From positions 607 to 64,606 of the IMG/VR virus record IMGVR_UViG_3300009873_000022: a stretch of DNA of 64,000 nt; one strand, given 5' to 3'. The notes beneath the pieces were generated by a model, which saw only the letters and a program-made list of their open reading frames with translations, was not told the DNA's origin and made no database searches. Positions 2,647 to 64,000 of the stretch are shown one piece after another (the stretch's first letter is position 1; every line of letters begins with the position of its first letter). Source of the DNA: a virus. Both the position numbers and the translations under genes were made by a program.

Positions 2647-2662
2647 GAAATACTCCTTGAGT

Positions 2663-8391: not shown

Positions 8392-8415
8392 GATAGTCTC
8401 CTGTGAGAGGTTGAA

Positions 8416-8618: not shown

Positions 8619-8639
8619 TAATCTCCTGTGAGATGCAGT

Positions 8640-9426: not shown

Positions 9427-9430
9427 TCAA
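9365..9430. repeat. three tandem copies (period 22-25 bp) of TTGGTTACTTTTTAACCA, each a short palindrome
   Basis: The copies are visible in the sequence and sit immediately after the stop of the FkbM-like gene. The third copy is degenerate. Confidence 0.75.
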
Positions 9431-47443: not shown

Positions 47444-47856
47444 GGACCCTCCTTCACCACGTGTGAGGCGAGAATGACACTGATCACATCGTGAGGGCTG
47501 ACCCCGGCCACGGTCGCTATCTCCTGCATCTTCTTGGTCAGTTGATCATTCAACCTGATTGGAACAGCAATAGAACTGATTTCAACATCAGACTTGTCTT
47601 CCGCTTCAATCCGCCTCTCAATCTCCCTGTTGAGGCGTCGTGTCTCTTCGCGCTTCTGCTCCTCTTCTTCGGTAGCCAGAGTAGCTTTGATTGCCTCTGC
47701 CAAAGTAGTGATGGCGACAAAGAGTTCTTCGCGTGGAAGCCTCTTCGTGACATTGGCCAGCCAGTCTCTCAATTCAATCATGTCCAAGGGCGTCCCAGGA
47801 CTCCATTGAAACGTGGTGCTCATATCTTGTTCCTCTCTTCGGCTCTTGTATTCCAC
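47440..47856 (-). CDS. hypothetical protein with a possible RHH-like C-terminus
   Basis: 138-aa ORF. Confidence 0.35.
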   Translation of the reverse strand: MEYKSRREEQDMSTTFQWSPGTPLDMIELRDWLANVTKRLPREELFVAITTLAEAIKATLATEEEEQKREETRRLNREIERRIEAEDKSDVEISSIAVPIRLNDQLTKKMQEIATVAGVSPHDVISVILASHVVKEGP

Positions 47857-48182
47857 ATCTTGACGGCTAGCTCTTTCGTGTCATGAAAGCCACAGTGCGC
47901 TCCGCATCCTTTTCCGTACTGCGCATCACAGATGATTGTGAATGCTTTACGGTGTAGTCTATCATTGCCATATAGTTCGTCGCTTGAGATAAGCACGAGT
48001 GTATCGTCTTTGCCACAGAACGGACAGGGCGGATAGGAATGTAGAGTCACTACCCTTTCAATCTCACCTCTTACCCTTTCTATTTCCTTGACCAACTTTG
48101 ACGGTGGACATACCAGCGCGATATCAGTCAGTTCGCGGCGAAGGCGGCTAAGGTGTGGCTCCGCTGATTTCAGATTAATCAT
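47820..48182 (-). CDS. Lar-family restriction-alleviation-like Zn-ribbon protein
   Basis: CPFCG and CGAHCG are present. The C-terminal KMWNTR resembles the Lar-family WNxR. Confidence 0.5.
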   Translation of the reverse strand: MINLKSAEPHLSRLRRELTDIALVCPPSKLVKEIERVRGEIERVVTLHSYPPCPFCGKDDTLVLISSDELYGNDRLHRKAFTIICDAQYGKGCGAHCGFHDTKELAVKMWNTRAEERNKI

Positions 48183-49449: not shown

Positions 49450-49760
49450 GCCTCGCCGCGCCTAGCACATAGCGCGGCAGGCTGGCAAGCAATTTAACAA
49501 TAATTCAACCCGGCCCCGGCTGGCCCTGCCTGCCCCGGCCCACATGCCCCGGCCCAAGCCCCGCGAGCTCTGGCGCGAGCCCCATGGGCCCCGGCTGGCC
49601 TATTACCTGCCCCGGCTGGCCCCGGTTTGCCAGCCCTGCCCCGGCTGGCCTGCCCCGGCTGGCCCTGCCCGGTTTGCGCAACCTGCCAGCCTGTAGCGGC
49701 CCGTGGTGGGCCGTGGGGCCTAATAACAGCGGGGGCACCAAGCCCTGTGAGCCCCAAGCA
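49450..49760. repeat. GC-rich intergenic repeat block with at least 5 copies of TGCCCCGGCTGGCC and G-tracts on the minus strand, preceded by the hairpin GCCGCGC...GCGCGGC
   Basis: The block is visible in the sequence, and its local GC is far above the roughly 50% of the rest of the window. The collagen-like ORFs called here are artefacts. Confidence 0.7.
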
Positions 49761-50085
49761 GCCCGCTACAATCCGGGCAGGCACTCGGGTCACGCGGCTT
49801 GTCAACGTTCATGGCGGCGGACTGCTCCATGTTTTGCCGGATGCGCTCCTGAGTTTCCCTTTCCTCAAGGATCTCAATGTACTTCTGGAGATAGTGCTGT
49901 GCCTTCTTCAGATCCTCGATTCCATTTTTCTTTTTGTGACGGAACACATACTTGGTGATGTTCCCTTGGAAGTAGTCGAGATTGAAGATATTCACTACAT
50001 CCCAGTGTTCAATGCCTCCGGTCTGATAGTGACTACCACCGACTTGAGTTTCGTTTGCCTTACTTGTAGACTGGCCAACCATGAT
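49720..50085 (-). CDS. DUF3310-like protein
   Basis: The motif GGSHYQTGGIEHWDV is present. The internal start MVGQ avoids overlap with the HD gene. Confidence 0.4.
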   Translation of the reverse strand: MMVGQSTSKANETQVGGSHYQTGGIEHWDVVNIFNLDYFQGNITKYVFRHKKKNGIEDLKKAQHYLQKYIEILEERETQERIRQNMEQSAAMNVDKPRDPSACPDCSGLLGAHRAWCPRCY

Positions 50086-50629
50086 AGGTCTCCTGTACCA
50101 AAGCGAGTGAGTAACGGGCCTCGAAGGCCATGCTGAATACCTCATAGAGCCACTTGGTCTGCTCATTGATATCCATGAGTCCACGTTCGCGTATGGCAGT
50201 GAGTCCATTCATGGCAACCGTGGCCATGATTCTGTTTCCACTGTCTACCTCCTCCATTGAGAAGATCACCAGCTCCATGATGTCACAGAATTTAAGTACG
50301 CGCTTCTCAATGCCACTCAGCTCCGTGTGCATACTGAATTCATTCTTGATCCGCTCCTCGACTACGCGAAGCGCTGACTCGAGTTCTGGGTGACGCCACT
50401 TGACCGGAGATGGAACATCACCAGTGATCCCCTCTGGTGCGTCATGGTACAGTGCTGCTCGCCACAGTGCTTTCGATGCGGTCGGTAGCACAATATCAAT
50501 CAATGCCAGTATCCCGAACGTGTGCTCACCAACTGTCTGTTGATGCACAGGAGGAAGAGTGTGAAGCCGCTTTACTCTGGCAACCACTCGCATCAACTTC
50601 AGCCTGTCGAATTCTTGTTTACCGTACAT
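50060..50629 (-). CDS. HD-domain phosphohydrolase (YfbR-like 5'-deoxynucleotidase family)
   Basis: H...HD...D is present as HTFGILALID...YHDAPEGITGD. Confidence 0.7.
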   Translation of the reverse strand: MYGKQEFDRLKLMRVVARVKRLHTLPPVHQQTVGEHTFGILALIDIVLPTASKALWRAALYHDAPEGITGDVPSPVKWRHPELESALRVVEERIKNEFSMHTELSGIEKRVLKFCDIMELVIFSMEEVDSGNRIMATVAMNGLTAIRERGLMDINEQTKWLYEVFSMAFEARYSLALVQETYHGWPVYK

Positions 50630-50630
50630 G

Positions 50631-51665
50631 TCAACCTCCCTTCACAGACATTCTGCGCTGAAGCCATTCAATGCAGGCGATCTTCCAGTCTTCCGCCTTG
50701 CAGTGTGCAGCCAGATGGTTGATTGCCTCTTGGGTTTGTCCGGCCTTGTGCATGTCCCACGCCAGTTGAATGGGGAAGAAGACATCCAGGAAGTACGAAT
50801 CATAGTGCCCACACTGTTCCCTGTGCGCGCCTTCCATCACTTCTAGCAGTTGGAACAACCACTCTTCCCATCTTGTGCCATTGATCAATGGGTACGGCTT
50901 GATGTTCTGTGTGGCGTACCTATCCACGCTCGCCGGGCTGGACCGCACCTTCAACCATGCGTCCTGTTGAGTGTAGACATGAAAGCTGTCGCTCACTTGG
51001 ATGTATGACCCTACCTCTACGCGCAAGGCGCGAGCCACGAATTCTTGAATGGTGCTGAACTGTACTGCGTTCGCTCCGTATGCTCCCCAGATGGCGTCGT
51101 TGCTGCGGCAGCTTACCGTGATGTTCAACCTTCCATCGCGCAACTTGAAGAAGATCAGATCATTGCACGGGATATCCTTCGAATTAGCCCCGAGGTCTGC
51201 AATTGGATCCCAGATGGCCACCACTGCGCGACGAGTATCTGGATCGTCACCAAGAAGTCTGATGACGCGACGGAGCTGATCAATTCCATGGAATGCCCTG
51301 ATTCGAAAGCCGTAAGCTCCGTGGAATGTCTCTCCATTGTCACTGTACTCAGACATCTTCTTGTTATAGCGAGTCAGTGTCGCTACGTCATTGCGCCCAT
51401 CGATGATCCACAGAGCCTCCATGAAATGGAAAAACGGATTCGCGTCTCTTTCTGGCGAAAAGAGCACACGCTCATCCGGTCGCAGGTACTCTGTAATCCA
51501 CAGACCCTTGTACTCCGCTGTCTCCATTCCACGGGGAGATATCACCCTCCAATTCTCCGAGTCTTGAATGGCCTCGACCGCACTGATCCTGAGATTGTTC
51601 AGTGCCTGATTCACATTTCTTACCACGACTGATCTAATCACTTCTTTCTCCTTTTGATTTCCCAC
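50631..51665 (-). CDS. thymidylate synthase-family enzyme (ThyA or dUMP hydroxymethylase; Cys nucleophile retained with His replaced by Asn)
   Basis: The protein aligns by eye to ThyA. LWIIDGRND aligns to LWFLQGDTN. AYGFRIRAF aligns to VYGKQWRAW. DPDTRRAVVAIWDP aligns to DPDSRRIIVSAWN. IPCNDLIFF aligns to APCHAFFQF. RSNDAIWGAYGAN aligns to RSCDVFLGLPFN, and the uracil-specific Asn is kept. Confidence 0.8.
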   Translation of the reverse strand: MGNQKEKEVIRSVVVRNVNQALNNLRISAVEAIQDSENWRVISPRGMETAEYKGLWITEYLRPDERVLFSPERDANPFFHFMEALWIIDGRNDVATLTRYNKKMSEYSDNGETFHGAYGFRIRAFHGIDQLRRVIRLLGDDPDTRRAVVAIWDPIADLGANSKDIPCNDLIFFKLRDGRLNITVSCRSNDAIWGAYGANAVQFSTIQEFVARALRVEVGSYIQVSDSFHVYTQQDAWLKVRSSPASVDRYATQNIKPYPLINGTRWEEWLFQLLEVMEGAHREQCGHYDSYFLDVFFPIQLAWDMHKAGQTQEAINHLAAHCKAEDWKIACIEWLQRRMSVKGG

Positions 51666-52648
51666 GGTCTAAGTACAACTTCTGACAGCGTCCTTATCTT
51701 GGTAGCGCCATCAACGGCCGTTCTATCACTGCCGGTAGGCATTCTCAATTCTTTCTTGCCCTTCTTGTCGGGTAGCAGCCCAACACGGTATGACTTGGCA
51801 TCACACACGTTGCACGGCTTCAACGAAGCTCTGTCACCTTGCATCAAGAATCTTCTTGCCGCCATGAACTCATTACCGTTCCACACGGCATCGAGGCCGT
51901 CCTTCACGATGTTTCCACACTGATATACGCCGCGCCAGTCATTACAGCAGATGGCCACTTCTCCATCCCATCGAATGGATAACTCACGGAATGGCTTCGC
52001 GCATCTGGCCTTCAACGGTTCTTTCAGTCCGGGGGAGCCAGAGCCGCAATGATTGTTCAGTGTCGAGTGTGTCCCGGCCTGCGCTACACTGATATCCTGT
52101 ACGCGAATGAATACTCGCGCCTTGTGCCCGTATCTGTTGTGTGGTGACCAGTCCTTTTCTTGTGGATAGGCATGTACTTCGAACACGTTTGAATCGAACG
52201 ATGAGAATTGTTCTGTGTTCGAAAACAGAATCGGGTCAATCTTGTCCTTGATCTTCACATACTCATAGGCATCGAATGCAAATACATTCAAGCCTGCATC
52301 AAACAGCTCTCTCAATGACTCGAACACTCCGGGTGGACGCAATAGCCCACCACCATTGGATGTCATCATCAACTGTACATTCGGCAGATACCTGCGGAAT
52401 GCCTTGACGATCTTGATGTAGTTAGGGTTCATCGTCGGTTCGCCATGCATTGCGAACTCAATGCGAGGATTCCACCCTGCCTCTGCAATCTGACCAGCGA
52501 TACTCTTGGCAGTAGCCACGGTCATGAACTTGAAATTCTTCTCCTTCTGTGTGCGGATACCCTGTAGCCCACAGAAGTCGCAATAGAGGTTGCAGCCCTC
52601 ACTGAGTTCCACCTGTACGGCGAACGGAGCTTCTTGTCTGTACTTCAT
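51638..52648 (-). CDS. radical SAM enzyme with a SPASM-like C-terminal domain
   Basis: The CxxxCxxC motif is EGCNLYCDFCG. The C-terminus has CCNDWRGVYQCGN...CNVCD. Confidence 0.8.
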   Translation of the reverse strand: MKYRQEAPFAVQVELSEGCNLYCDFCGLQGIRTQKEKNFKFMTVATAKSIAGQIAEAGWNPRIEFAMHGEPTMNPNYIKIVKAFRRYLPNVQLMMTSNGGGLLRPPGVFESLRELFDAGLNVFAFDAYEYVKIKDKIDPILFSNTEQFSSFDSNVFEVHAYPQEKDWSPHNRYGHKARVFIRVQDISVAQAGTHSTLNNHCGSGSPGLKEPLKARCAKPFRELSIRWDGEVAICCNDWRGVYQCGNIVKDGLDAVWNGNEFMAARRFLMQGDRASLKPCNVCDAKSYRVGLLPDKKGKKELRMPTGSDRTAVDGATKIRTLSEVVLRPWEIKRRKK

Positions 52649-53673
52649 TTCAACATCTCCTCTATGTACATCTGACCGACCAGCTTGGGATCGTGCTCTC
52701 TCAGCAGTCTGTACCCATGATGTACGATCTCTCCAATCGAAGACCTGCGCAGTGGCAGTCCATTCAGTATGGCAGACACATTGAACGCCAGTTCACTTGG
52801 CCCATTGACTGGGATTACGTGCCTCCACTTTCGTAGCTCACCATTGTATCGGAACCAGTCGTAGTGCATGATGTTGACACATCCAGCATCCATGGCCTCC
52901 ATCTGCGCGTACTGTGTGCCACCTCCATCATCTGGAAACCATGTCATGTCCACGTTCACCGTAGCTGCCGCAGCCAATCTCACTGGAGCATCAAAAGTCA
53001 TGGGATACTGAAAGGTCTTACCACTCTGCTGAAAGACATCACCGTATTTCGCTTCGAGTTGCTTGGTGTACATGCGAAATTCAGCGCCCAGAAGCTTCAC
53101 CCTGTACTGTGGCTCGAGCATCCTGTTTGCCTCCAGCACGATCCTCGGGCGTTTGACACTGGCAATTCGCGCAATGGATATCGCTTCATTTCTCCTGCGA
53201 ATCTCAGGAAACGGACCAGCACGCATGTATGGATGTGGAATCCACACTGCGTCCTTGTAGAAGTGCCGTATCGTTGGACGGATACAGATGGGCCGCGTTG
53301 CCAGTTTGGTGACCTTTCCCAAATGATCGTAGATCGTGAATTCATTTGGGTCATGAATGACGGTGCGCATACCATCGGCCATCAAGCGCATGATCATATC
53401 TGGAGGAGTGAGGTACTTGGAATTCGCCGGTGATCCCATCACGGTAGGCATGTCTTTGACTATGGTCCTAGCCTCGCTGAATGTGATGTTCCTGTATTTC
53501 ACTCCTTCATACTGTGCAAAGTTTCGTAGCCTCTCTGGCGGTTCGCCACGAGGTTTGACACGAAGTATCACGGGTTCGTGTCCAGCGGCTTCGAACGCTT
53601 TGAACAAGTGCGCAGTGAACGTGGATGTTCCGCCTCCAAGGTACGGGCGAAAGAAGAATATTCCTACTTTCAT
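52645..53673 (-). CDS. GT-B fold glycosyltransferase, possibly DNA-modifying (the N-terminus recalls T4 alpha-glucosyltransferase)
   Basis: MKVGIFFFRPYLGGGTSTF...AAGHEPVILRV is compared with the T4 AGT N-terminus MRICIFMARGLEGCGVTKF...GHEVTLV as recalled from memory. Confidence 0.45.
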   Translation of the reverse strand: MKVGIFFFRPYLGGGTSTFTAHLFKAFEAAGHEPVILRVKPRGEPPERLRNFAQYEGVKYRNITFSEARTIVKDMPTVMGSPANSKYLTPPDMIMRLMADGMRTVIHDPNEFTIYDHLGKVTKLATRPICIRPTIRHFYKDAVWIPHPYMRAGPFPEIRRRNEAISIARIASVKRPRIVLEANRMLEPQYRVKLLGAEFRMYTKQLEAKYGDVFQQSGKTFQYPMTFDAPVRLAAAATVNVDMTWFPDDGGGTQYAQMEAMDAGCVNIMHYDWFRYNGELRKWRHVIPVNGPSELAFNVSAILNGLPLRRSSIGEIVHHGYRLLREHDPKLVGQMYIEEMLK

Positions 53674-53792
53674 CTATGGGCTCCCAGCGATATCGCCTTA
53701 CAATGAACACACTGGTAGACACCACCCTTGAGATGATTGAACTTGAACTCCCATTTGCAGTTAAGGAATAGACACCTGATTGAGTACCTCAT
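53670..53792 (-). CDS. possible 40-aa Zn-ribbon microprotein, translationally coupled (ATGA overlap)
   Basis: The sequence MRYSIRCLFLNCKWEFKFNHLKGGVYQCVHCKAISLGAHR has CxxxxC...CxxC. The longer track ORF 53670..53918 overlaps the upstream gene. Confidence 0.25.
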   Translation of the reverse strand: MRYSIRCLFLNCKWEFKFNHLKGGVYQCVHCKAISLGAHR

Positions 53793-54664
53793 ATGATCCC
53801 TTCCCCTTTCAACTTGCTCACGTTCAATTGCAACTCGAAATTGAAATGCGGCAACTCGTACGGAAAAGCCTTGCGCCAATTGATACGAACATCGGTGCGT
53901 TCTTTCATTCCTTCCCACGATGTAGCACCGATCACTTTCTTTCGAACAACGGTTACGTACTTGGGATGCGCATCACGCAGCATGTGTGCCGCCTTGGCCT
54001 GTGTCTCTTCGTTACGGTAGATACTGCACCCTCCCTTCATATTAGACCCGGTCTGGTTCCAGCAGTAGTCGTAGACACAGGCATTTGGAATTCCACGCTC
54101 AAGAAGCGACAATGTCACGTGAAAGTCCTCCATGACCCTGTACTCATCGAACCTTAGCCCGGTCTTGGCAAACTCTTTGATGTTGAACCCATGAACATTG
54201 TTGATGCGCGTACACCATCTGTAAGGGCTTAGATAGTGTGATGAATCTACACGGCTAGACAACCCTGTCTGCACGATTCCCATGCTGAGTGGCCTGACCA
54301 TCATGTAGAGCATGTGCCTCATGTCAGGTGCAGTGGCCTTCACTAGTTTGATGGCTCTTGGTCTTTCTCTACGGTAGAAGTAGAGGTCGTCATCGAACAT
54401 CAGAGCATACTTGGTAGGGCAATGATCAAGTATCCACTGTCTGGTCTTGCCAATCCCCTTCTTTGATATACCCAAGACCTTGAATAGTGAATTTGGGTGA
54501 TGCTGTCTGTATTCAGATACCTCATCAATTGGCACTACGACCCTGACCTTGCCAGCCTCTGAAAGTTCTACTGGCATGGCATAGAACGTTCGCACATCTG
54601 CGGCCCTACCCCTACTGGGAATGTAGATGGTAGTGTCTTCCATCAACTCTTCGTACGAACTCAT
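53789..54664 (-). CDS. putative GT-A fold glycosyltransferase (DxD-like MFDDDLYFY)
   Basis: The N-terminus IYIPSRGR is Rossmann-like and an acidic DDD motif is present. The protein is 291 aa. Confidence 0.4.
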   Translation of the reverse strand: MSSYEELMEDTTIYIPSRGRAADVRTFYAMPVELSEAGKVRVVVPIDEVSEYRQHHPNSLFKVLGISKKGIGKTRQWILDHCPTKYALMFDDDLYFYRRERPRAIKLVKATAPDMRHMLYMMVRPLSMGIVQTGLSSRVDSSHYLSPYRWCTRINNVHGFNIKEFAKTGLRFDEYRVMEDFHVTLSLLERGIPNACVYDYCWNQTGSNMKGGCSIYRNEETQAKAAHMLRDAHPKYVTVVRKKVIGATSWEGMKERTDVRINWRKAFPYELPHFNFELQLNVSKLKGEGII

Positions 54665-54672
54665 GAGTGCTC

Positions 54673-55662
54673 CTATAATGGTAACTCGTGCTGTAGTGTC
54701 CCCACTCCTGTCGGTGTGAAAAGACTGCGCGGCCTTCCCTCACCATTCTTGACGCGCATGTACTTGTCGAACTCGCAGAGTGAATGTTCAATCTCTCGCA
54801 TCTCGAATGGAAGTTCCGTTCCACGTGCATGTGCTTTGGAGTATACGAACATGTTGAACCAACTCCCCTGTATCAGAAGATCTCGCATGACAGCATTGTA
54901 ATCAATCTTCCTGTACTTCTTGGTCTTTGGACGTTCAGCGCTGCCAGTCAGCAATCGATGAATGCCGCGCTTCGCACCGGGTCCGGGGTTGGCCCATGAC
55001 TCACTGTCAATGTTCTTGGCAAGGACCCTAGTGTACCTTAGATCACACGCTATCTCATATGCAACGAATGGCCCAATGGTATAGATCTCGCTCAGTGCCT
55101 CGACTGCCTTTTCCATTGAGCGATGATTCGCTATCTGCGCCGCCAGTTCATCGCGCTTTTCAAAGAGTTCCTGTAGTGCCTCACATATGACAACGATCTT
55201 TGACTCCTTTCGCCCGCCAGATGTAACGATGTACGCGCCAGTGAATATCTGCTTTCCCTCTGCTTTTCGTTTCTCCAGAATCTTGATGGCACGATCTTTG
55301 ACCCACAGGTTCTTCGACCACTTTCCCTTGGTGAGTTCGCTACGTGGTAGCCCAAAGAACAGAGCATCGTAGGTCTCTGGCCAATTGAACAGTCGAAACA
55401 TGGCACAGTGGAAGATGATATCACCATCGGTCATTTCCTTACCGCGACCGAGAAGACGTACGAACCGGTCTACCCAAGCGAGTGTCACACGGTCAAGTTG
55501 CCTGAATACATTGGTGAACTTGTATTTGGACAGTATCTTGTCCTTAGTGTATGGTGGGGACCTCTTCTCTACGAATCTGCGTAGATAGATTGAATGACGC
55601 TCATTGATGAAATACCAGAATGTCTTCAATTGAGTTTTCCGGTACGCAATCTTATCGGCCAT
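54673..55662 (-). CDS. hypothetical protein in the DNA-modification-like cluster
   Basis: 329-aa ORF with no recognisable motif by eye. Confidence 0.45.
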   Translation of the reverse strand: MADKIAYRKTQLKTFWYFINERHSIYLRRFVEKRSPPYTKDKILSKYKFTNVFRQLDRVTLAWVDRFVRLLGRGKEMTDGDIIFHCAMFRLFNWPETYDALFFGLPRSELTKGKWSKNLWVKDRAIKILEKRKAEGKQIFTGAYIVTSGGRKESKIVVICEALQELFEKRDELAAQIANHRSMEKAVEALSEIYTIGPFVAYEIACDLRYTRVLAKNIDSESWANPGPGAKRGIHRLLTGSAERPKTKKYRKIDYNAVMRDLLIQGSWFNMFVYSKAHARGTELPFEMREIEHSLCEFDKYMRVKNGEGRPRSLFTPTGVGTLQHELPL

Positions 55663-55719
55663 GAAATTCTCCTTGACGGTGAGGAGGCAGTTTATACGAT
55701 ACTGCCAAACGTTCCAGGA

Positions 55720-56721
55720 TTAGGCGGCGACCTTGACGTAGCCGTTAGCCACGAGCCAGCTCACGTATCCCTTCATCTTCTTCTCAGGGATGTCATGCTG
55801 CTTCTTGGCCAGACGAACAGCCTTGCCGTAGCTGGTCTTGGAGCCAATGACAGACTGTGCCTGCTCGCGCACTCCACCTTTGAATGCCTTGACCGTAGAA
55901 AGCATGGTTTCTTCAGTCAGCTTGGTGCGCTTGCTGCGCTCCTTCTTCTCCTTCTTTTCGGTAGCAGGGGCATCATCAGAACTCCGCTTCTTCTTTTTCT
56001 TTGCAGGAGCCTCCTCGCTGACCTTCTCCTTTTTCTTCTTGGAAACCTTTTCTTCTGACGGCTTGCTCTTCTCAGACTTGCTCATCTTCGTACTCCTATC
56101 TCTTGGTGCGACCGGCCAGATCTTCAACGTTTCGTCCCGGTCTTTAAGTTTGAAACGAACGTCGTTGTCATCGGAAACAACTCCGAGGACGCGATGCATC
56201 ATGTACTCTACGGTGTGAAATGCCTTGGTGTATGTTTGTGTCTTTACCTTTTTGCCAAGCCCTCCTGCAATAAGTCGGTTGAGATCGTCCCATGAAAACT
56301 GTGCCAGTGTTGTCTGTATCTCATACACGAAATTCGAATCATTGTACGCATCCTTTTCCGTGCGCATGTACACGGGTATGGATGGCGTCCATCTCTTATC
56401 GTTGTTCTTGTCCTTTTCGTAATCAGCAATCTTTTCATTGATGATCTTGACGTAGCGGGCCAAGAACTTCTTTCCATTGATGGCGCTGCGCGGTATGGTT
56501 TCCCTGAGTTCACGCCTGAATGTCATTGCTGCAGAGTGTGGATCCTCCTTGGTATTCTTGTAGTTTTCCTTTCGATTCTTCTTTTCTTCCTCGCGCTTCT
56601 TTGCGTTCTTTGCGTACCGCTTGAGATCCTTGTCAGTGGACGGTACGAATGCGGGAGTGGTACTTGCCTCTGATGTCTTGGACTTTTTCTTTGAGAGTGA
56701 GTCTTTCTTTTCCTTTACCAT
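55720..56721 (-). CDS. lysine-rich histone H1-like DNA-binding protein
   Basis: Poly-K/E tracts such as KKKEKVSEEAPAKKKKKRS are present. The C-terminus has a winged-helix-like globular segment of about 70 aa. Confidence 0.55.
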   Translation of the reverse strand: MVKEKKDSLSKKKSKTSEASTTPAFVPSTDKDLKRYAKNAKKREEEKKNRKENYKNTKEDPHSAAMTFRRELRETIPRSAINGKKFLARYVKIINEKIADYEKDKNNDKRWTPSIPVYMRTEKDAYNDSNFVYEIQTTLAQFSWDDLNRLIAGGLGKKVKTQTYTKAFHTVEYMMHRVLGVVSDDNDVRFKLKDRDETLKIWPVAPRDRSTKMSKSEKSKPSEEKVSKKKKEKVSEEAPAKKKKKRSSDDAPATEKKEKKERSKRTKLTEETMLSTVKAFKGGVREQAQSVIGSKTSYGKAVRLAKKQHDIPEKKMKGYVSWLVANGYVKVAA

Positions 56722-58186
56722 AGCGTTTCTCCATTGCCTTTAACAGTGACCGTTGAGTCTTGTCTTTCGAGTGCAGTGAATCGACCATGATTTCATCGAC
56801 AGTTCCCTGCGCTATGATCCGATAGACGATCACTCTGCGCTTCTGACCCTGTCGCCATATTCGCCTTATGAACTGTTCATAGTTTTCCAAGTTCCAGGTT
56901 AGCGAAAAGAATATAACGATGCCTCCCCTGCCCTCCTGCAGATTGAGGCCATGCGCTATGCTGTCTGGTTGCCCTGCCATGCCCGGCAGAGTGCCTTTGT
57001 CCCATTGTCGTAGATACTTCTCTACCTCTTTATCCTTGGTGTGTCCACCAATGAATGGAATGTCCTTGAACTGTGGCGCATGCTTTGCGAAGTATCGCTT
57101 CATACGCTCCATGTCGTGCCTGAACTCATACGCTATCAGTGCGGGCTCACCGTTCAGTTCCTCCAGAAGATCGACTAGTTCCTCGCACTTAGCGTCATGT
57201 ATCTTACGCCATTTCTTGCGTGGCTTTAGTGGGTTCTCATTGACTATCTCGCCCGTCTCAGAGTAGAACGCTCCGCCATTGGCTATCTGACGCAGTTTTC
57301 CAGACGCCACGGCAGCGTTCGCTGCCACGATGTCACCTTCATTGTACTCAAGCACGAATTCCTTTTCCATCTTTCGATACGTGGCCATGGACTTATCATC
57401 AAGCTGCACATACCGATCCACGTAAGTGAGTGGCGGAAGATCCAACTTCTCATCACCGAAACGAAGTATCAGGTGCCTGATGCGCCTGAACATCCTCTTC
57501 TTCGCGCCACGCTGAAGTTCCCAGGCATATCCCATGTACCCGGAGGGATAGAAGTATTCATTCCTGAATGCGGTGATGTACGGCCCGAAGGCCTCACCTA
57601 GGTCTAACGTGTATATCTGACCGAACAATCCCATCAATCCGTTTGGGGCTGGAGATCCAGTCATGATGTACCTTCTATCGAAGAACTTCAAGATACTCTT
57701 TAGAGTACGGAATCTCACCGTATTGGTGTGTCGTAGCTTGCTGGACTCATCTACTGCCAGCATCACACGTTTTCCACGCTTGAACCACTTCTTCTGGCGC
57801 TTCAACCAAGGCAACCCCTCGTAGTTCATCAGACGGATATCTGCATCCTTGTACAGGGCATCTTCTTTCTTTCCTCCGTGAACTATGGAGTACTTGAACT
57901 TCCGCGTATCCCGCCACTTCGATATTTCTTTTGGCCACACATTCAGGATGATCCTGCGCTTTGCCAAGACCATCAATTCATCAACTATCCCAAGCGACTT
58001 GAGTACCTTGAAGATCATCAAGATGATCATGGTCTTCCCAAGACCAGGAGCCAAGAAGAATCCAGCGGCAGGGTTTTCAACTCCGTGCGCGATGCATTCT
58101 TCTTGATAGTCTTTCGGTACGAACCTTGGCCATTTCGATTTCTTTCTCAAGGAGTGAGAGGGCCTCCGCCGCGCTATCGACTTCAT
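56633..58186 (-). CDS. SNF2-family helicase
   Basis: Motif I is APGLGKT. Motif II is LAVDESSKL. Motif VI is QGQKRRVIVYRIIAQGTVDE. Confidence 0.8.
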   Translation of the reverse strand: MKSIARRRPSHSLRKKSKWPRFVPKDYQEECIAHGVENPAAGFFLAPGLGKTMIILMIFKVLKSLGIVDELMVLAKRRIILNVWPKEISKWRDTRKFKYSIVHGGKKEDALYKDADIRLMNYEGLPWLKRQKKWFKRGKRVMLAVDESSKLRHTNTVRFRTLKSILKFFDRRYIMTGSPAPNGLMGLFGQIYTLDLGEAFGPYITAFRNEYFYPSGYMGYAWELQRGAKKRMFRRIRHLILRFGDEKLDLPPLTYVDRYVQLDDKSMATYRKMEKEFVLEYNEGDIVAANAAVASGKLRQIANGGAFYSETGEIVNENPLKPRKKWRKIHDAKCEELVDLLEELNGEPALIAYEFRHDMERMKRYFAKHAPQFKDIPFIGGHTKDKEVEKYLRQWDKGTLPGMAGQPDSIAHGLNLQEGRGGIVIFFSLTWNLENYEQFIRRIWRQGQKRRVIVYRIIAQGTVDEIMVDSLHSKDKTQRSLLKAMEKRYGKGKERLTLKEKVQDIRGKYHSRIRTVH

Positions 58187-58424
58187 ATGTCTTGTGTCCC
58201 AACTTCTTCAGTTGCCTGTGTCTGTAGTCCTGTAGCGGTTCAGATTCTGTATCTGTTCTTTTGAACTCGAACAGTACGGTAGTCCCATACTTAGCAAGAA
58301 CGAGCTGGTCATTGAACCCGTTGCTACCGTAGGCTCCCTTCGTCTGCATCTTGTACGCGATGTATCCTTTCCTGCGCACGGCCCGAACGAACTTGTTCTC
58401 CTCTATTCGTTCGGGCTTGCTCAT
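58077..58424 (-). CDS. VRR-NUC domain nuclease
   Basis: D...LFEFKR together with the PD-(D/E)xK-like core matches the VRR-NUC family. The protein is 115 aa. Confidence 0.6.
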   Translation of the reverse strand: MSKPERIEENKFVRAVRRKGYIAYKMQTKGAYGSNGFNDQLVLAKYGTTVLFEFKRTDTESEPLQDYRHRQLKKLGHKTYEVDSAAEALSLLEKEIEMAKVRTERLSRRMHRARS

Positions 58425-58627
58425 ACGTCCTCACCAGACAGTTTTCGCAACCAGTTCAACTGCGCATATGACACAGAGCAATCCATGCCGAATCTTCCAA
58501 ACCTGTGCACCATGTCATCAACGAACTTGATGGCAGCCTCTGATACCGCCCCTTTCTCTGCCGCGTCAAGCAGCTCTTCGACTTCACTGACTGTCGCGTA
58601 ATGATCTTTGAATTGTGTCTTGCTCAT
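58421..58627 (-). CDS. small hypothetical protein
   Basis: 68-aa ORF. Confidence 0.35.
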   Translation of the reverse strand: MSKTQFKDHYATVSEVEELLDAAEKGAVSEAAIKFVDDMVHRFGRFGMDCSVSYAQLNWLRKLSGEDV

Positions 58628-59301
58628 GACATCACCTTCTTCCAGTGCTTACAGGTTCCACCCGGTTGACTGCTGCGGTGGGAACACCACTTACATGAAT
58701 TGATTGACGGTGTGGGTAGAAACTTCCTCTCACTCATCAGCCGCTTTCCCTCGCCTATCCAGTGTCGCGTGAGAATCTTCAGTTCTGAGTCTGTGAATGA
58801 CAGCTTCATGGTATCACCGCTATCAATGTACCAGAACTCTACCTCGGCACCATCACTCCTTGGAAACTTGATCTTCGATGTGATCGCCCCGAGTTCAGCC
58901 TGCTGTGTCCATTCAGGCCAGATCTTGCCAGTCTTGTAATCGATATACAACACTGGCGCGTTTCGAGGAGGAACGACAGCATCGCTCTTGCTTACGAACT
59001 GCCCTTGGTACTCTTTCGCCGGTTTGAAATCAAGATCGAAGTTCCAGTACTCTTCTGCCACGGGAGTAGCGGCCTTCAAGCCCTTGAACTCATACTCGAA
59101 CAGTTTCAGATCCTCTGGAACAGACTTGATGGCTCCCTTGACATATGCCTCAGCCATCTTATGAATGGCATCACCGCGCAGCATGGCTGGCCCTGGAGGT
59201 TGTCGAATCTTGTCAATGTACGAAAGCTTCACTGCGTACAGGCACTTCTTGGATTGCGCCCATAGCGAGTATGACCATCGCTTCAGTTGATACTCTTTCA
59301 T
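58624..59301 (-). CDS. Cas4/RecB-like PD-(D/E)xK exonuclease with a 4-Cys cluster
   Basis: An N-terminal Cys is present, with the motif IDYKTGK and the C-terminal cluster CKWCSH...GTCKHW. The start MKEYQ follows GGAGG. The track ORF extends to 59487. Confidence 0.6.
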   Translation of the reverse strand: MKEYQLKRWSYSLWAQSKKCLYAVKLSYIDKIRQPPGPAMLRGDAIHKMAEAYVKGAIKSVPEDLKLFEYEFKGLKAATPVAEEYWNFDLDFKPAKEYQGQFVSKSDAVVPPRNAPVLYIDYKTGKIWPEWTQQAELGAITSKIKFPRSDGAEVEFWYIDSGDTMKLSFTDSELKILTRHWIGEGKRLMSERKFLPTPSINSCKWCSHRSSQPGGTCKHWKKVMS

Positions 59302-59312
59302 TGAACCTCCAA

Positions 59313-59885
59313 TTAGAATACGCGCTTCCACCACGGACGATTCACATACTGCATGATTTGAATCAAGTGACGCGCCTGATTTTTCGCATCGTCGAGCGCG
59401 TCGTGCGATGTCCCGTAGTACGTTGCCTTGACATCTCGGTTCAGTGCATACATGGTACGGTGACACATCACGTCTTTGTACGACCACAGTACAGGCAGCT
59501 CACATGCTCGAAGAGCATTCTGCACAATCGGAATGTCGAATGCCGCGCCCATGCTCCAGACTCTGATTCGATCAGTTGGCTCATTCTTCCGTGAACGCAG
59601 CCAATCATTGAACCGCCACAGCATAGAATGGAGGGCCTCTGGATCCCTCATCCATCCCATCTTTGCCTCTGCTGACTGAGTCTTCCACCAGTCAATGGTC
59701 TTCTGATCGAAGTGCAGCCCTGCGCGCATGTTACTGCCGGGGGTAGCGTTTCCCTTGAACTCATCTCCCAGTGTTCCCTTGCCAAAGTCCATTGTCACTG
59801 CCGCCAGTGAAACCACTGCCGCGTTTGATTGCAGACTCATGGTCTCTGTGTCGATCATCACTTCAATGAATTTATCCACTCTCAT
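59313..59885 (-). CDS. DnaQ-like DEDD 3'-5' exonuclease
   Basis: Exo I is VMIDTET and the Exo III-like motif is YGTSHDALDDA. Confidence 0.7.
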   Translation of the reverse strand: MRVDKFIEVMIDTETMSLQSNAAVVSLAAVTMDFGKGTLGDEFKGNATPGSNMRAGLHFDQKTIDWWKTQSAEAKMGWMRDPEALHSMLWRFNDWLRSRKNEPTDRIRVWSMGAAFDIPIVQNALRACELPVLWSYKDVMCHRTMYALNRDVKATYYGTSHDALDDAKNQARHLIQIMQYVNRPWWKRVF

Positions 59886-60220
59886 TCTCCTCTGAGTACA
59901 TTCAGTGCCATCAGTGTCATGATCTCTGCCGTGGTAGGTCTTCGTCCCTTGGCACCACCGATTCGCTCGGCAATTCGCTTCTCCGCCATTGAAAGATACA
60001 CGATTGCCTCCTTGACATGAGAGGCATACTTGACCAAGTCCTGTGTCGAGGTTCCTTTTCGATTCGAAGCCTTCTTGGCATGGCGATACACGAACTCCTT
60101 AGATACCTTGTGTGTCTCGGCAATTTCTTCGGTCGGCAACCCGTTTTCAACGTCATGGACCACATTCGCAATTAGTGTAGGGTTTGCACGCTTGAAACGC
60201 TTGATTCTCTTGATCTTCAC
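59882..60220 (-). CDS. HTH protein (sigma region-4-like or transcriptional regulator)
   Basis: The helix-turn-helix-like segment is LPTEEIAETHKVSKEFVYRHAK. Confidence 0.4.
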   Translation of the reverse strand: MKIKRIKRFKRANPTLIANVVHDVENGLPTEEIAETHKVSKEFVYRHAKKASNRKGTSTQDLVKYASHVKEAIVYLSMAEKRIAERIGGAKGRRPTTAEIMTLMALNVLRGE

Positions 60221-60423
60221 TTCTTGCTCCCTTTCTTACCTGACAGCATGCTCTGCAGACGCTCATCGTACAACTTGAGCTTTTCACGGCGAACCATCAT
60301 TTGTGCGGGGCTTCGCTTGCTCCAGTAGTAGAAACTCGAACGGCATGTCGGACACACATCAAGCCGTGACAACGGCCCAATGGTATTGGAACATGATGGA
60401 ATGATACACGCCCGGACTTTCAT
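60217..60423 (-). CDS. Zn-ribbon protein
   Basis: CIIPSC...CPTC is present. Confidence 0.4.
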   Translation of the reverse strand: MKVRACIIPSCSNTIGPLSRLDVCPTCRSSFYYWSKRSPAQMMVRREKLKLYDERLQSMLSGKKGSKK

Positions 60424-60435
60424 TGTTGATTTCCT

Positions 60436-61323
60436 TTATCGTTTAATGAACTCTTTCATACGAATTGTTCTTACGGCCAAAGCTGCTGCAATGCTGCGAA
60501 CCATATCTGGTGAGGCAGCTACTCTATCGAGAGACGGTAAGCTATTTGACATCCCCTTACGCGTAATCAATGATGCACTGTCCATTACTACCCTAGCCCC
60601 ATCAGATCTATATGGCTGCAATAGACTGTACCTAATGGTTCTGTTCAGAGCCTCATAGACTAGCTTAAATATCGCTGGGTCTAATGAAAACTCAGTCTGT
60701 AATGGGCCACCATAGTTGATAGAATCGTAATAGCTATCGATTGAATTCTCAGTCCCCATCTTAAAGATAAATCCAAACATCAACATGACATTCATCCATG
60801 CGGCCATAGCTCTGTTAACACTTTTCCCCGGAAACATTTCCTTGAACTGTGCATACATACGCATCGTTTCTGATGTTTCTCTGCCGCGCTGGAGGTTATA
60901 GATTATGCCTGCTTTTCTAAACGCTCCTCCAATAATGAAAGCCATTAGTATATCAGCTACGACTCTCGGGTTATTAGTCTGAAGATCGGCGAGTACGAAG
61001 GACACTGGATATTCAACTGGCCAACTCTGCATCACAGTTACTAAATCCCCGGGAACAACTATTACACCCTTCTTGCGAAGAATATCTACAACTTTTGGAT
61101 TACGCTCTATTGCTACTAAACAGTGATCCTTATACTTCTTCTTCAGTGCCACACTCCGATCTATATCCCTAGTTCCAGGTAGATATAGAATCAGAGCATC
61201 GTGCTTGTTAGGTGCATGCTTCTCAACTATATTCCAGCAAGTTCTTCTCCAATGATCCTTGGTATAGTTATCATACTCTACAGCATCGATAGTTTCTACC
61301 TTGTTCATTTTGCCCTCGCCCAT
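60436..61323 (-). CDS. hypothetical protein in an AT-richer segment
   Basis: 295-aa ORF whose local GC is visibly lower than its surroundings. Confidence 0.45.
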   Translation of the reverse strand: MGEGKMNKVETIDAVEYDNYTKDHWRRTCWNIVEKHAPNKHDALILYLPGTRDIDRSVALKKKYKDHCLVAIERNPKVVDILRKKGVIVVPGDLVTVMQSWPVEYPVSFVLADLQTNNPRVVADILMAFIIGGAFRKAGIIYNLQRGRETSETMRMYAQFKEMFPGKSVNRAMAAWMNVMLMFGFIFKMGTENSIDSYYDSINYGGPLQTEFSLDPAIFKLVYEALNRTIRYSLLQPYRSDGARVVMDSASLITRKGMSNSLPSLDRVAASPDMVRSIAAALAVRTIRMKEFIKR

Positions 61324-63197
61324 GAAAAATCAGACACCTTCGGATCAGCAAGCATCGGAACATTGAACTCCATATCACACATGGCATCTGCAATCCGCCT
61401 GCCGTGCGCAGCACTAGGGGCCATGCACACTAGCTCGTCATGCACCTGCAATGCAATGCGCGCGTCTGGCACCTGCTGGAACACATTGATCATGCCTTGC
61501 TTGGTCACGTCTGCCGCGGACGGTTGAATGAGATAATTGAGCATCTTGTACTCGAAGCTCATCCAGAACTCTTCGCCGGTATGCTTGTTCCTCAGATACT
61601 TTGGTTCCTCGCAGAAGTACTCACGACCTCCCCATGTGGTCAATGGCTTTCCACGACGCTCAAGGTCCTTGAGCTCATCAATTAGGCCCTTGATTCCTGG
61701 AACAGCCTGCAGAATGCCGTCACGCACCTTCTTGGCAGTGTTCTTGTCCAAACCCATGCCGTGAGCCAGCTTATCCAAGCCCATGCCGTAGATCAGACCG
61801 AACACCGTCACCTTGATGGCCTTTCGAGGAATATCAATTCCCAGAATCTTGCCTACCAGAACGCGGCAGAAGTCGTGGACGTCCAACTTCGGGTTATCAC
61901 GGTATGCCTTCATCAACACACCTCTTTCGAAGTGTGCCAGCAACCTGAGTTCTTGTTGATTGTAGTCAACTGTGATCAGAACAGAGTCTTCATCAGGGAT
62001 GATGAAGTCACGCAACCCAATGAAGTCATAGCCGTGCTGATCCTTGGCCCATAACTGCATCAGCAGCAACGTATCCTTGTTCTTTGAATCCTCCACATTG
62101 CCAGCCACGTTCTGGAAGTTCGGATCGTACGATGACATTCGACCGCTGCGCGCTCCACCGCCTCCTTCATCGGTCTTGTTCCTTACTTGGTTGAAGCGCG
62201 GTAGAACCCGACCATGTGTCAATTCAGCCTGTTCAATCCACGGAATGATGAATGAGCTCGTGTACTTCTTGATGACTGAATGGATGGCCAGCAAATCGAG
62301 CAGCCGCTTGTCGTTGCAGGTAGCCTTCAAGTTCTCTACCTTCGTACTTACCTTGCCAGTCGGAGTCTTGATGATTGAATCCAGCTTGTTACTGGCGATC
62401 AATGCCTTGGCCAGTTGCGCACCGCTGTCTACATTGAACCGCTTCTTGACATCAGGGTTGTCCATATCACCAGGACTGATGCGAAGCCTCTTGCATATCC
62501 TTCGAACGAGGTCCTTGTCCATCTTCTCGAAGACATGCAGACACTCTTTCAGTCTATCCATGTCTACCCGAACACCGCTGCGCTCCATCTCCAATGTGAT
62601 TGGAGTAAGTGCCAGTTCGCGCCTGTACGCTGGCAGCATTCCACGGTCTGCTATCTCTGGCCGTATTTTGTCCCACAGACGGTACGTCCTATCAACGTCA
62701 CCTATAGCATACGGACCAAGGATGCTTGGAGGGCACTTCCACATATGCTCGCCCCAGCTACTCGGCTTTCGCTTTGCCTCAGGGATGTTGGACAGCACCC
62801 AATCCTTCACTCGGTCTGACTCTTCTGGCGGCATGTCCAGATACACTTCAGCCAGTGGCTTCAGTGCCAAAGTCTCTTCGTGTGGGTTCTGCAGGAATGA
62901 TAGATACAGAGTGTCCTCCACCGTTGATGGTGGCGAAAGCCCCCAGTGAGTCTCTATCACATCTGTATCGAATGAGTTGTTGTGAAACACAACGGGCATT
63001 CCAGACCTGTAGATGTCCTTCACTACCTCTCTGGCAGTGCCGACGCTACAGTTGTTTCCCTCTGTATGCCCGAATGCATAGTACTTCTTGTTCCCCAAGA
63101 GATCTCTGACTGCCACTCCCACTGGAACCGGTGGATAGTACGGGCGCGACTCGATTGACTTGGTTTCGAGGTCGACAGTATATGCGGCCTGTTTCAT
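61305..63197 (-). CDS. DNA polymerase I (family A) with an N-terminal 3'-5' exonuclease
   Basis: Exo I is VDLET and Exo II is HNNSFD. Pol motif A is DYNQQELR, motif B is KVTVFGLIYGMG and motif C is QVHDELV. Confidence 0.85.
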   Translation of the reverse strand: MKQAAYTVDLETKSIESRPYYPPVPVGVAVRDLLGNKKYYAFGHTEGNNCSVGTAREVVKDIYRSGMPVVFHNNSFDTDVIETHWGLSPPSTVEDTLYLSFLQNPHEETLALKPLAEVYLDMPPEESDRVKDWVLSNIPEAKRKPSSWGEHMWKCPPSILGPYAIGDVDRTYRLWDKIRPEIADRGMLPAYRRELALTPITLEMERSGVRVDMDRLKECLHVFEKMDKDLVRRICKRLRISPGDMDNPDVKKRFNVDSGAQLAKALIASNKLDSIIKTPTGKVSTKVENLKATCNDKRLLDLLAIHSVIKKYTSSFIIPWIEQAELTHGRVLPRFNQVRNKTDEGGGGARSGRMSSYDPNFQNVAGNVEDSKNKDTLLLMQLWAKDQHGYDFIGLRDFIIPDEDSVLITVDYNQQELRLLAHFERGVLMKAYRDNPKLDVHDFCRVLVGKILGIDIPRKAIKVTVFGLIYGMGLDKLAHGMGLDKNTAKKVRDGILQAVPGIKGLIDELKDLERRGKPLTTWGGREYFCEEPKYLRNKHTGEEFWMSFEYKMLNYLIQPSAADVTKQGMINVFQQVPDARIALQVHDELVCMAPSAAHGRRIADAMCDMEFNVPMLADPKVSDFSWARAK

Positions 63198-63424
63198 TCG
63201 TGAATCTCCTCGATACCGTACTCATGTCTTTCGCGCAGATACCGCAGTCTATTGAAACGCCGGTGCAACCTGAAGATGACCTGCTTCCTTCGCTTATTGG
63301 CCAACTCTTCATCGAGCATCTTGCCAATCTGCTTTTCAGTCAGGCCATTTCTGCTGGCTAGTGTAGACACGGTATCCTGGTACGAAAGTTCTGTGATCTT
63401 CGTGGGCTTCTTTTTCCTCTTCAT
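63194..63424 (-). CDS. small DNA-binding-like protein
   Basis: The start MKRKKKPT follows GGAGG. The track ORF extends to 63484. Confidence 0.4.
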   Translation of the reverse strand: MKRKKKPTKITELSYQDTVSTLASRNGLTEKQIGKMLDEELANKRRKQVIFRLHRRFNRLRYLRERHEYGIEEIHE

Positions 63425-63436
63425 TGAACATCCTCC

Positions 63437-63508
63437 AAAGGGGACACAGCCCTTGCCCGAGTCGAGCTGTGTCCCCATCTTCACTTGACGATAATCACTT
63501 CGTAGTGA
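63437..63508. terminator. two hairpins (GGGGACACAG...CTGTGTCCCC 10-bp stem, and AATCACT-acgaa-AGTGATT) between the acidic-protein gene and the next gene
   Basis: The inverted repeats are visible. A short T-run follows on the minus strand. Confidence 0.45.
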
Positions 63509-64000
63509 TTACTTCTTGCCCTTCTTGGCAAACCGCGACTTCGCCGGGGCCTTCTTGGCTGGCTTCTTTGCCGGGGCCTTCTTGGCTGGCTTCTTTGCCG
63601 GGGCTTTCTTGGCTGCACCCTTCTTGCCCTTCTTCACGGGCTTCTCATCCTCATCGTCCTCATCCTCGTCGTCCTCATCCTCATCCTCATCATCCTCGTC
63701 GTCCTCATCCTCATCGTCCTCATCGTCCTCATCGTCCTCATCGTCCTCATCGTCCTCGTCCTCGTCCTCGTCCTCATCGTCCTCATCGTCCTCGTCCTCG
63801 TCCTCGTCCTCATCCTTCTTGCTCTTCTTGCCCTTCTTCACGGGCTTCTCATCCTCATCGTCCTCGTCCTCGTCGTCCTCGTCCTCATCCTCATCCTCAT
63901 CCTCATCCTCGTCTTCGTCTTCGTCTTCGTCTTCGTCTTCGTCTTCGTCTTCGTCTTCGTCTTCGTCTTCGTCTTCGTCTTCGTCTTCGTCTTCGTCTTC
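63509..64000 (-). CDS. poly-acidic (Glu/Asp repeat) protein with a C-terminal H1/AlgP-like AKKPAKK tail; 5'-partial, open through the window end
   Basis: Read on the minus strand from the window end, the sequence is (ED)n...EKPVKKGKKSKK-(D/E)n-EKPVKKGKKGAAKKAPAKKPAKKAPAKKPAKKAPAKSRFAKKGKK*. The track start at 63841 is a GTG inside a longer open frame. Confidence 0.55.
   Translation of the reverse strand, partial: EDEDEDEDEDEDEDEDEDEDEDEDEDEDEDEDEDEDEDEDEDDEDEDDEDEKPVKKGKKSKKDEDEDEDEDDEDDEDEDEDEDDEDDEDDEDDEDDEDEDDEDDEDEDEDDEDEDDEDEKPVKKGKKGAAKKAPAKKPAKKAPAKKPAKKAPAKSRFAKKGKK
63906..64000. repeat. perfect hexanucleotide tandem repeat (GTCTTC)n of about 15 units, running to the window edge, encoding (Asp-Glu)n on the minus strand
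   Basis: The repeat is visible in the sequence. Confidence 0.9.

Follow-up and report, generated by a model that had tools for sequence, protein, structure and literature searches.

A phage gene with a hexanucleotide-repeat acidic tail, split across the two ends of a 64-kb window, probably encodes a zinc-OB single-stranded-DNA-binding protein

T7 gp2.5 and E. coli SSB, each a single-stranded-DNA-binding protein (SSB), carry disordered acidic tails of ~20-60 residues, which compete for the cleft of an oligonucleotide/oligosaccharide-binding (OB) fold and end in an acidic tip (…DF, …DDDIPF). The terminal Phe of the gp2.5 and SSB-Ct tails has a role in partner docking. T4/RB69 gp32 combines a basic N-terminal segment, a Zn-containing OB core and an acidic disordered C-terminal domain, the A-domain of ~48 residues. 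For T7 gp2.5, tail deletion is described as stabilising the complex with single-stranded DNA (ssDNA), the tail competing with ssDNA for the OB domain, in an account that itself refers to earlier work (PMC10359462, citing Marintcheva et al. 2008). The TG1 homologue of the phiC31 recombination directionality factor (RDF) gp3 is a proven Zn-OB SSB, and gp3-type RDFs moonlight as SSBs (PMC11795197); the hydrophobic N-terminal peptide of the TG1 protein is predicted to bind further copies of that protein and family-A polymerase. Here we describe a probably related design in 64,000 nucleotides (nt) of phage DNA (IMG/VR record IMGVR_UViG_3300009873_000022, positions 607 to 64,606; this whole stretch is termed the window). 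A minus-strand open reading frame (ORF) at 63509-64000 had been read as a stand-alone poly-(Glu/Asp) protein. From the reconstruction given below, this ORF is almost certainly the C-terminal tail of a larger gene that starts at the opposite end of the window. The best explanation of the reconstructed protein, to which we assign a probability of roughly 0.6, is that it is the SSB of this phage, equipped with a regulatory tail that is hypertrophied and liable to slippage.

The frame is open from position 64000 to a TAA at 63511-63509 and comprises 163 codons. These encode, in order, (ED)15, 21 more Asp/Glu residues, KPVKKGKKSKK, 57 Asp/Glu residues, KPVKKGKKGAAKK, AKKAPAKKP-type repeats and ...AKSRFAKKGKK, the C-terminal peptide ending in ...PAKSRFAKKGKK. 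The tail is thus a block copolymer, in which two ~60-residue poly-Asp/Glu blocks with a Lys-rich separator are followed by a Lys/Ala/Pro-rich cap bearing a Ser-Arg-Phe tip:

63911-64000, minus strand: (ED)15, from a perfect (GAAGAC)15 microsatellite that the window edge truncates (copy number 15 or more)
63848-63910, minus strand: imperfect GAK-codon continuation of acidic block 1 (EDEDEDEDEDEDDEDEDDEDE)
63815-63847, minus strand: basic punctuation block KPVKKGKKSKK, which with the preceding Glu codon holds the first EKPVKKGKK copy (63824-63850)
63644-63814, minus strand: acidic block 2, 57 consecutive Asp/Glu, in imperfect 6-, 9- and 18-nt repeats
63512-63643, minus strand: C-terminal basic block KPVKKGKKGAAKK(APAKKPAKK)n...AKSRFAKKGKK, holding the second EKPVKKGKK copy and a 27-nt tandem repeat
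63530-63538, minus strand: Ser-Arg-Phe tip, family-wide, inside the C-terminal basic block
63509-63511, minus strand: stop codon of the acid-tail gene

The elements on which the original prediction was built are all present: the ORF open from the window edge, the perfect (GTCTTC/GAAGAC)15 run, acidic stretches punctuated twice by EKPVKKGKK, and a lysine/alanine/proline H1-like end (AKKAPAKKP repeats). Tandem Repeats Finder (TRF) reports a period of 6 at 63873-64000 (21.3 copies, 97% matches), and the 18-mer GAAGACGAAGACGAAGAC has 13 overlapping matches vs 0 expected in shuffles. A repeat scan of the 64-kb window found no comparable microsatellite elsewhere. The 27-nt sequence GAGAAGCCCGTGAAGAAGGGCAAGAAG, which encodes EKPVKKGKK, occurs in two exact copies (63824-63850 and 63620-63646) with no mismatch, and the DNA of the K/A/P tail is itself a 27-nt tandem repeat (63539-63615; TRF, 2.9 copies, 96% matches). 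The perfect hexamer run and the exact 27-nt duplications suggest a recent expansion. The idea that this is a repeat prone to in-frame slippage also holds: the tract is coding, it is extreme, and its 6-nt unit equals two codons.

The start of the gene was located at the other end of the window, where an ATG at 417-415 on the minus strand, with a GAGGAA ribosome-binding site upstream, opens a frame that runs to position 1:

1-417, minus strand: first 139 codons, translating to the predicted basic N-terminal helix plus the first half of the predicted Zn-OB core (55% identity to the L002 protein)

Four Cys codons fall in this segment, C76 (190-192), C100 (118-120), C103 (109-111) and C118 (64-66). 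The connection between both ends was established through related and overlapping contigs. L002, an IMG/VR contig reached via its polymerase (PolA 56% identical to the window PolA), encodes a syntenic protein of 365 residues, in which an N-terminal part of ~230 residues precedes acid/basic blocks and the end ...GSRFSR; the 139-residue window N-terminus matches this protein with E = 3e-54. L003, a 30-kb public contig found via the neighbouring 131-residue protein, is 100% identical to window positions 1-10823 and runs 338 nt past position 1, with the frame open through the rest of the conserved domain. It reads ...SKDDDEDEDLD and then ends inside GAA-GAC repeats, in the same Glu-Asp frame as at 63911-64000. 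At the other side, the 5.6-kb public contig L001 (obtained by exact-sequence look-up of PolA) matches 57967-63572 at 100% identity and breaks off within the K/A/P repeat. Hence, both public short-read contigs (SRR6032603) terminate in repeats of the acid-tail gene.

As the repeat unit is two codons, the halves join in frame at any copy number. Judged by sequence, the two GAAGAC-repeat ends are the joining point of the gene, and since both window ends lie in one gene, the window is all but the whole of a genome, circular or permuted, that measures ~64.3 kb or more and was cut inside the acid-tail gene. A stop codon upstream of the tract would have counted against the original prediction; none is present, and the frame is carried by L003 and runs on to the ATG. 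The minimal reconstruction is a protein of 406 residues, consisting of a 223-residue core (net charge +11) and a 183-residue tail (68 D, 50 E, 29 K, 1 R; net -88). The window lacks ~310 nt of the gene plus an unspecified number of hexamer repeats, so that 406 and 183 residues are both minima. Megablast of the acid-tail region against the phage collection gave no match. The unique stretch that lies immediately upstream of the repeat was sought by exact-pattern scans in viral, metagenome and genome contigs; these returned nothing, which leaves 15 copies as a minimum. The earlier reading of the tract as an orphan ORF can be traced to truncation of the gene at the repeat.

The core (residues 1-223) belongs to a very large protein family. 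No meaningful Pfam match was obtained for the tail, the N-terminal fragment or any of 30 homologues, and the window N-terminal fragment matches only two PHROGs, both of unknown function (phrog_27714, E = 2e-18; phrog_23155). A word-indexed search yielded 31 homologues, with 41-54% identity between the window protein and P0001-P0014, and a profile search extended these to 6,881 cluster representatives at E ≤ 1e-3, mostly of 245-300 residues (about 6,900 clusters, defined at 50% identity). A further profile search listed 120 more members, none of which is named other than 'hypothetical protein' among the matches listed. Members in cultured phages include Stenotrophomonas AXL3 gp43, Pseudomonas KPP25 ORF069 and proteins of Rhizobium RHph_TM3_14A, Acinetobacter HHU4 and Effie, and Xanthomonas Xp15, all annotated as hypothetical. 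The window protein shares with the family a motif series CFA...CxxC...NEWGS...KAC..RRRL over ~230 residues, of which NEWGS and KAC..RRRL are invariant or nearly so in the family alignment. C76, C100, C103 and C118 are all present in 179 of the 179 top representatives; AXL3 gp43 and similar distant members lack two of the four.

Structural models were made for two orthologues, P0002 and P0025, and the structural evidence for the window protein comes via these. The AlphaFold2 model of P0002 has a predicted local distance difference test score (pLDDT) of ~85-97 at residues 30-230, with the tail below 50 and predicted disordered, while the AlphaFold model of the short-tail member P0025 reaches a mean pLDDT of 91.9 and a predicted template modelling score (pTM) of 0.84. 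The nearest solved folds are the phiC31 gp3 RDF, the BRCA2 OB domains and T4/RB69 gp32, with the RB69 gp32 core as top Foldseek match in the PDB (E = 0.055). In BFVD, the significant matches are unannotated family members and annotated SSBs are marginal (E = 7e-3 for that of Streptomyces phage BRock and 0.028 for gp32 of Acinetobacter phage ZZ1). At the sequence level, 2 of 30 members match phrog_15004 'single strand DNA binding protein' (E = 2e-4). A sequence-profile search of the PDB with the family found nothing, gp32 included; neither gp32 (PF08804) nor any other SSB Pfam was found in the 30 members even at E ≤ 10; PF18897 had no match in family members; and hhalign against phiC31 gp3 alone and against a 120-sequence gp3 alignment returned a probability of 0.2% each. 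With a likeness of fold and no link in sequence, the relationship is therefore taken to be at the level of the fold and not of family membership. On these models the core is very likely a Zn-OB fold, and residues 1-223 are modelled as a short basic N-terminal helix followed by an OB core with a putative four-cysteine zinc site.

The closest parallel is with phiC31 gp3 / TG1 gp25 (PF18897). In these proteins, too, a core of ~200-240 residues combines an OB fold with a Cys-rich zinc loop, hydrophobic residues occur in a short N-terminal extension, and the gene is placed among replication genes near a family-A polymerase; the models predict that their three-dimensional fold is shared by the family core. 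The N-terminal helix of the window protein (F3, L4, M7; W/L in relatives) may be analogous to the TG1 N-terminal peptide. Unlike the window protein, gp3 has no long tail, sequence or profile similarity is undetectable, and the role of RDF is inapplicable to the window phage, in which a serine integrase was not detected among the ~50 ORFs scanned. The three-part layout of gp32 set out above would also be shared, but the window family would use four Cys as zinc ligands, with other spacing, and its members lack a PF08804 match; moreover, the window tail is ~4x the length of the gp32 A-domain, contains basic blocks and has a basic-aromatic tip. With T7 gp2.5 and E. coli SSB the likeness lies in a disordered acidic tail that would compete for the OB cleft and in a terminal aromatic residue, whereas the window tail is far longer (at least 183 residues), has a net charge of -88 and ends in a Lys/Arg-rich tip (…KSRFAKKGKK). 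The protein does not show the gp2.5 fold with an aromatic tail end in acidic context that marks the gp2.5 type. The full annotation of AXL3 lists polymerase, primase, helicase and ligase and no SSB, a gap that is indirectly consistent with an SSB role for the family. We therefore regard the protein as probably a phage SSB.

To place the tail in the context of the family, tails were compared among 174 representatives with a complete core. Most are 20-40 residues long, rich in Lys/Arg/Ala/Pro and nearly free of D/E, and in 142 of the 174 (82%) an aromatic residue falls within the last four positions (…KKKF, …KKKY). By this comparison, the K/A/P-rich basic end is the ancestral C-terminus of the whole family, and the basic-aromatic C-terminus is probably a docking peptide. 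The view that the basic end was added as a tether to DNA or to a lysine-rich partner thus gives way to that of an inherited C-terminus with a conserved aromatic. Its resemblance to histone H1 / AlgP is limited to the (AKKAPAKKP)n composition at 63539-63615; in the family, the K/A/P segment is a C-terminal peptide of ~20-40 residues with a conserved aromatic and not a long DNA-condensing domain.

A different architecture is seen in 21 representatives and the window, whose tails of 95-194 residues consist of acidic blocks alternating with basic ones and in every case close with …SRF(G/S/A)K. These long acid/basic tails form essentially one clade: they account for 22 of the 24 sequences in the smallest cluster that holds them all, one of the remaining two being a fragment. 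Within the clade, cores are as little as 35% identical, with a median of 49%. The number of acidic blocks ranges from 2 to 10 and their length is variable; the alternation and the basic SRF cap are constant. The tracts of the relatives are encoded by degenerate repeats with 76-90% matches, and this preservation of tract composition while the DNA repeats decay argues for selection on the tail. The window is the outlier of the series, with a longest pure D/E run of 57-60 residues vs 37 or fewer in the other long-tail members and a tail net charge of -88 vs -60 or weaker.

The cases of gp32, T7 gp2.5 and E. coli SSB suggest a mechanism by analogy. While the protein is free, its acidic blocks would sit in the presumed cationic ssDNA cleft as a DNA mimic in cis, lowering the affinity for duplex DNA and speeding turnover. 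Binding of ssDNA would push the acidic tail out of the cleft, and the freed tail, together with the basic-aromatic tip, could then recruit, or be passed to, replisome partners such as PolA, the primase-helicase and the SNF2 helicase. Tandem duplications and the perfect hexanucleotide repeat would allow tail length to be altered easily in in-frame steps, so that length may vary within a population. We put these specific roles of the tail (cleft competition, partner contacts) forward tentatively, at somewhat less than even odds. The DNA mimicry invoked in the original prediction is reasonable in this cis-acting form, given that SSB acidic tails compete with ssDNA; a stand-alone Ocr-like protein it is not.

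Several observations weigh against the SSB assignment or limit its support. Most tails in the family are basic and not acidic, so that the classical logic of an acidic SSB tail is confined to one clade, and where known SSBs end in an acidic DDDIPF or DGDF tip, that conserved in the family is basic-aromatic. The median net charge of the family core is ~-4; this does not discriminate for or against an SSB, and core charge was dropped as an uninformative discriminator. No other SSB was found among ~50 window ORFs, a result that gives limited support since it was judged by PHROG matches only, with about half of the small ORFs unmatched.

Other explanations for so charged a tail were considered. 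The extreme acidity had suggested an Ocr-like anti-restriction protein, yet Ocr, the classic acidic mimic in anti-restriction, is a folded, stand-alone early protein, and the window tract is the tail of a replication-module protein of at least 406 residues, is disordered in the orthologue model (pLDDT below 50), lacks a Pfam or PHROG match and has mostly non-acidic relatives. A histone or nucleoid-protein chaperone and a packaged internal protein had been proposed as well; Pfam and PHROG searches found no link to either. A precedent is SPO1 Gp44, which joins a DNA-binding domain to a disordered, highly acidic segment (57% D/E) that mimics ssDNA and binds RNA polymerase (PMC8208478), although neither Gp44 nor Ocr is homologous to the window protein. 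Following this precedent, D/E blocks produced at SSB-like abundance could act in trans by titrating DNA-binding proteins of the host (for example restriction or BREX components, RNA polymerase, nucleoid proteins or ssDNA sensors), with the OB domain and basic blocks localising the decoy on DNA. The charge density (net ~-88, pure D/E runs of 57-60) and the retention of the tail architecture in the clade, hence under selection, would suit such a decoy. However, no similarity to Ocr, ArdA or other known mimics was seen in Pfam/PHROG (no PADLOC or defence-directed search was made), the gene lies in the replication module by PolA rather than with early host-takeover genes, acidic tracts are absent altogether from most of the family, so that the ancestral function differs, and the phage has a separate Lar-like restriction-alleviation candidate (47820-48182). 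Because of this genomic position, the family history and the lack of Ocr/ArdA similarity, we treat a trans-acting decoy as secondary to the SSB reading, and unlikely. A similarly low chance is given to an SSB that self-associates as a block polyampholyte, its acidic blocks binding the basic blocks, tip or OB cleft of neighbours, with long-range cooperativity on ssDNA or a phase-separated replication compartment as the outcome. Across the clade, tail sequence and length drift, and the alternation of 2-10 acidic blocks with basic ones is the single feature that persists; E. coli SSB is reported, within the scope of one preprint, to phase-separate and to show linker-dependent cooperativity (bioRxiv 10.1101/2022.01.17.476650). 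Against this, the support is purely compositional, and the window tail is the least balanced of the clade (118 acidic vs 30 basic residues), implying self-repulsion unless cations, polyamines or basic partners intervene. A broader version, in which the tail of this clade evolved into a hyper-charged block polyampholyte of 100-190 residues serving as an abundant ssDNA-like decoy or condensate scaffold, is improbable, if slightly less so than either form alone. If true, the tail would sequester host defence or takeover targets or organise a membrane-less replication compartment, and slippage of the perfect hexanucleotide repeat would adjust how much negative charge it supplies, two residues at a time.

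A largely neutral origin, with a linker that tolerates any length, inflated by slippage, and acidity serving as spacer only, draws on the perfection and hence youth of (GAAGAC)15, the exact 27-nt duplications and the many indels among relatives' tails of 95-194 residues. It is hard to reconcile with tails that are clade-confined yet kept down to 35% core identity, that are always strongly D/E-biased with K/R punctuation and an SRF end, and whose composition is conserved in relatives through degenerate codons (76-90% repeat matches) as the DNA repeat decays; we rate it as quite unlikely. The same low standing is given to an OB-fold protein with a different job, be it an RDF like phiC31 gp3, a helicase loader or a recombination mediator. 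OB folds are multi-role, the best structural neighbour is an RDF, and every listed family member is named 'hypothetical protein' only. Yet gp3-type RDFs are themselves moonlighting SSBs (PMC11795197), and the family occurs in phages with a full replisome but no annotated SSB. The RDF role was rejected, as no integrase was found among the ~50 scanned ORFs (about half of the small ORFs unmatched), which include every ORF of 413 residues or more; in PHROG scans the latter matched polymerase, helicase, primase, ATPase and virion proteins. An SSB with an expanded regulatory tail therefore remains our preferred explanation.

The genomic neighbourhood was compared between the window, L002, AXL3, L009 (a long-tail contig) and L010 (a short-tail contig). 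The conserved order is ligase and small genes, a 126-140-residue gene, the family gene, a ~70-residue gene, PolA, a PD-(D/E)XK or Cas4-like nuclease and an SNF2 helicase. In the window, the immediate surroundings of the gene are:

428-823, minus strand: upstream neighbour of 131 residues; a 126-140-residue gene lies directly upstream in L002 (8086-8466), L009 (9598-9999) and L010 (9582-10004)
63440-63512, minus strand: two stable RNA hairpins directly after the stop codon (9-bp stem ~63491-63512; 13-bp stem ~63440-63476)
63194-63424, minus strand: small gene of 76 residues between the SSB-like gene and PolA; a similar-sized gene is in the same place in L002, AXL3 and L009
61305-63197, minus strand: family-A DNA polymerase with 3'-5' exonuclease domain, downstream neighbour

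The tract had been placed next to the DNA polymerase gene; the polymerase is indeed nearby, but the 76-residue gene, which has no PHROG match, lies in between. The only match of the 131-residue gene is phrog_13900 'minor head protein' (E = 1e-10), a label that looks wrong for a gene of the replication module; its product may be a functional partner of the SSB-like protein. The hairpin pair has a minimum free energy of -37.8 kcal/mol (z = -4.2); UUU comes after it, and then the GGAGGA ribosome-binding site that serves the following gene. A simple consensus terminator scan did not call the pair. It is possible that the hairpins attenuate read-through into the polymerase gene or stabilise the mRNA, either of which would fit an abundant protein encoded upstream of a catalytic one. 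Elsewhere the window encodes a primase-helicase (9956-12118), the SNF2 helicase (56633-58186), an Rv2179c-like exonuclease and an AAA ATPase. An ORF-poor stretch (8680-9955) on the downstream side of the primase-helicase gene is a candidate replication origin or operator array. Its contents are a 31-nt tandem repeat (8795-8855), the palindromic 18-mer TTGGTTACTTTTTAACCA in three copies at spacings of 25 and 22 nt (9365-9429), and a 15-nt inverted repeat (9199-9213 / 9321-9335).

The window also contains a cluster of the thymidine-hypermodification type (49720-56721, minus strand), and the same set is present in L010:

49720-50208, minus strand: DUF3310 / nucleotide-kinase-like
50060-50629, minus strand: YfbR/HD 5'-deoxynucleotidase-like
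50631-51665, minus strand: enlarged thymidylate-synthase (TS) homologue, 344 residues
51638-52648, minus strand: radical SAM/SPASM
52645-53673, minus strand: 342-residue protein without assigned function
53789-54664, minus strand: TAGT glycosyltransferase
54673-55662, minus strand: 5-hydroxymethyldeoxyuridine (5-hmdU) DNA kinase, HMUDK_hel (E = 3e-61)

This gene content suggests that the phage DNA probably carries modified thymidine. A tie between the long acidic tail and hypermodification was rejected, as the short-tail L010 has the same HMUDK/TAGT/TS genes. The 120-residue Lar-like protein (47820-48182, minus strand) matches the restriction-alleviation PHROG phrog_599 (E = 6.6e-7) and is a separate candidate for anti-restriction in this phage. 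A MoxR-like AAA_5 ATPase (413 residues) is paired with a DUF7192 protein (301 residues) at 6248-8391 on the minus strand, within the replication or early region, and the pair is kept in the distant long-tail relative L009 (949-3050). On the plus strand, a 1053-residue ORF (16800-19961) fuses a portal domain (residues 15-461) to a C-terminal head-morphogenesis/minor-head region that is SPP1 gp7-like (residues ~860-1035). A 1033-residue ORF (23813-26914, plus strand) with two glycosyltransferase-like regions and a methyltransferase-like region (phrog_2170, phrog_13126, phrog_22502) lies inside the virion block, an unusual position between capsid and tail genes.

An SSB role would provide a testable function for a very large phage family that has neither a source name nor a Pfam family, and several of the cultured phages that carry it have no annotated SSB. 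It would also tie the family, by structure, to the directionality factors of phiC31/TG1, which serve as tools for genome engineering. The hexamer repeat breaks short-read assemblies, with the consequence that such genes will be systematically truncated and misread as orphan low-complexity ORFs. The acid/basic-block clade, with the window as its extreme member, would offer a natural series in which to study how an SSB tail, by its length and its pattern of charge, tunes ssDNA binding, hand-off to partners and possibly condensation.

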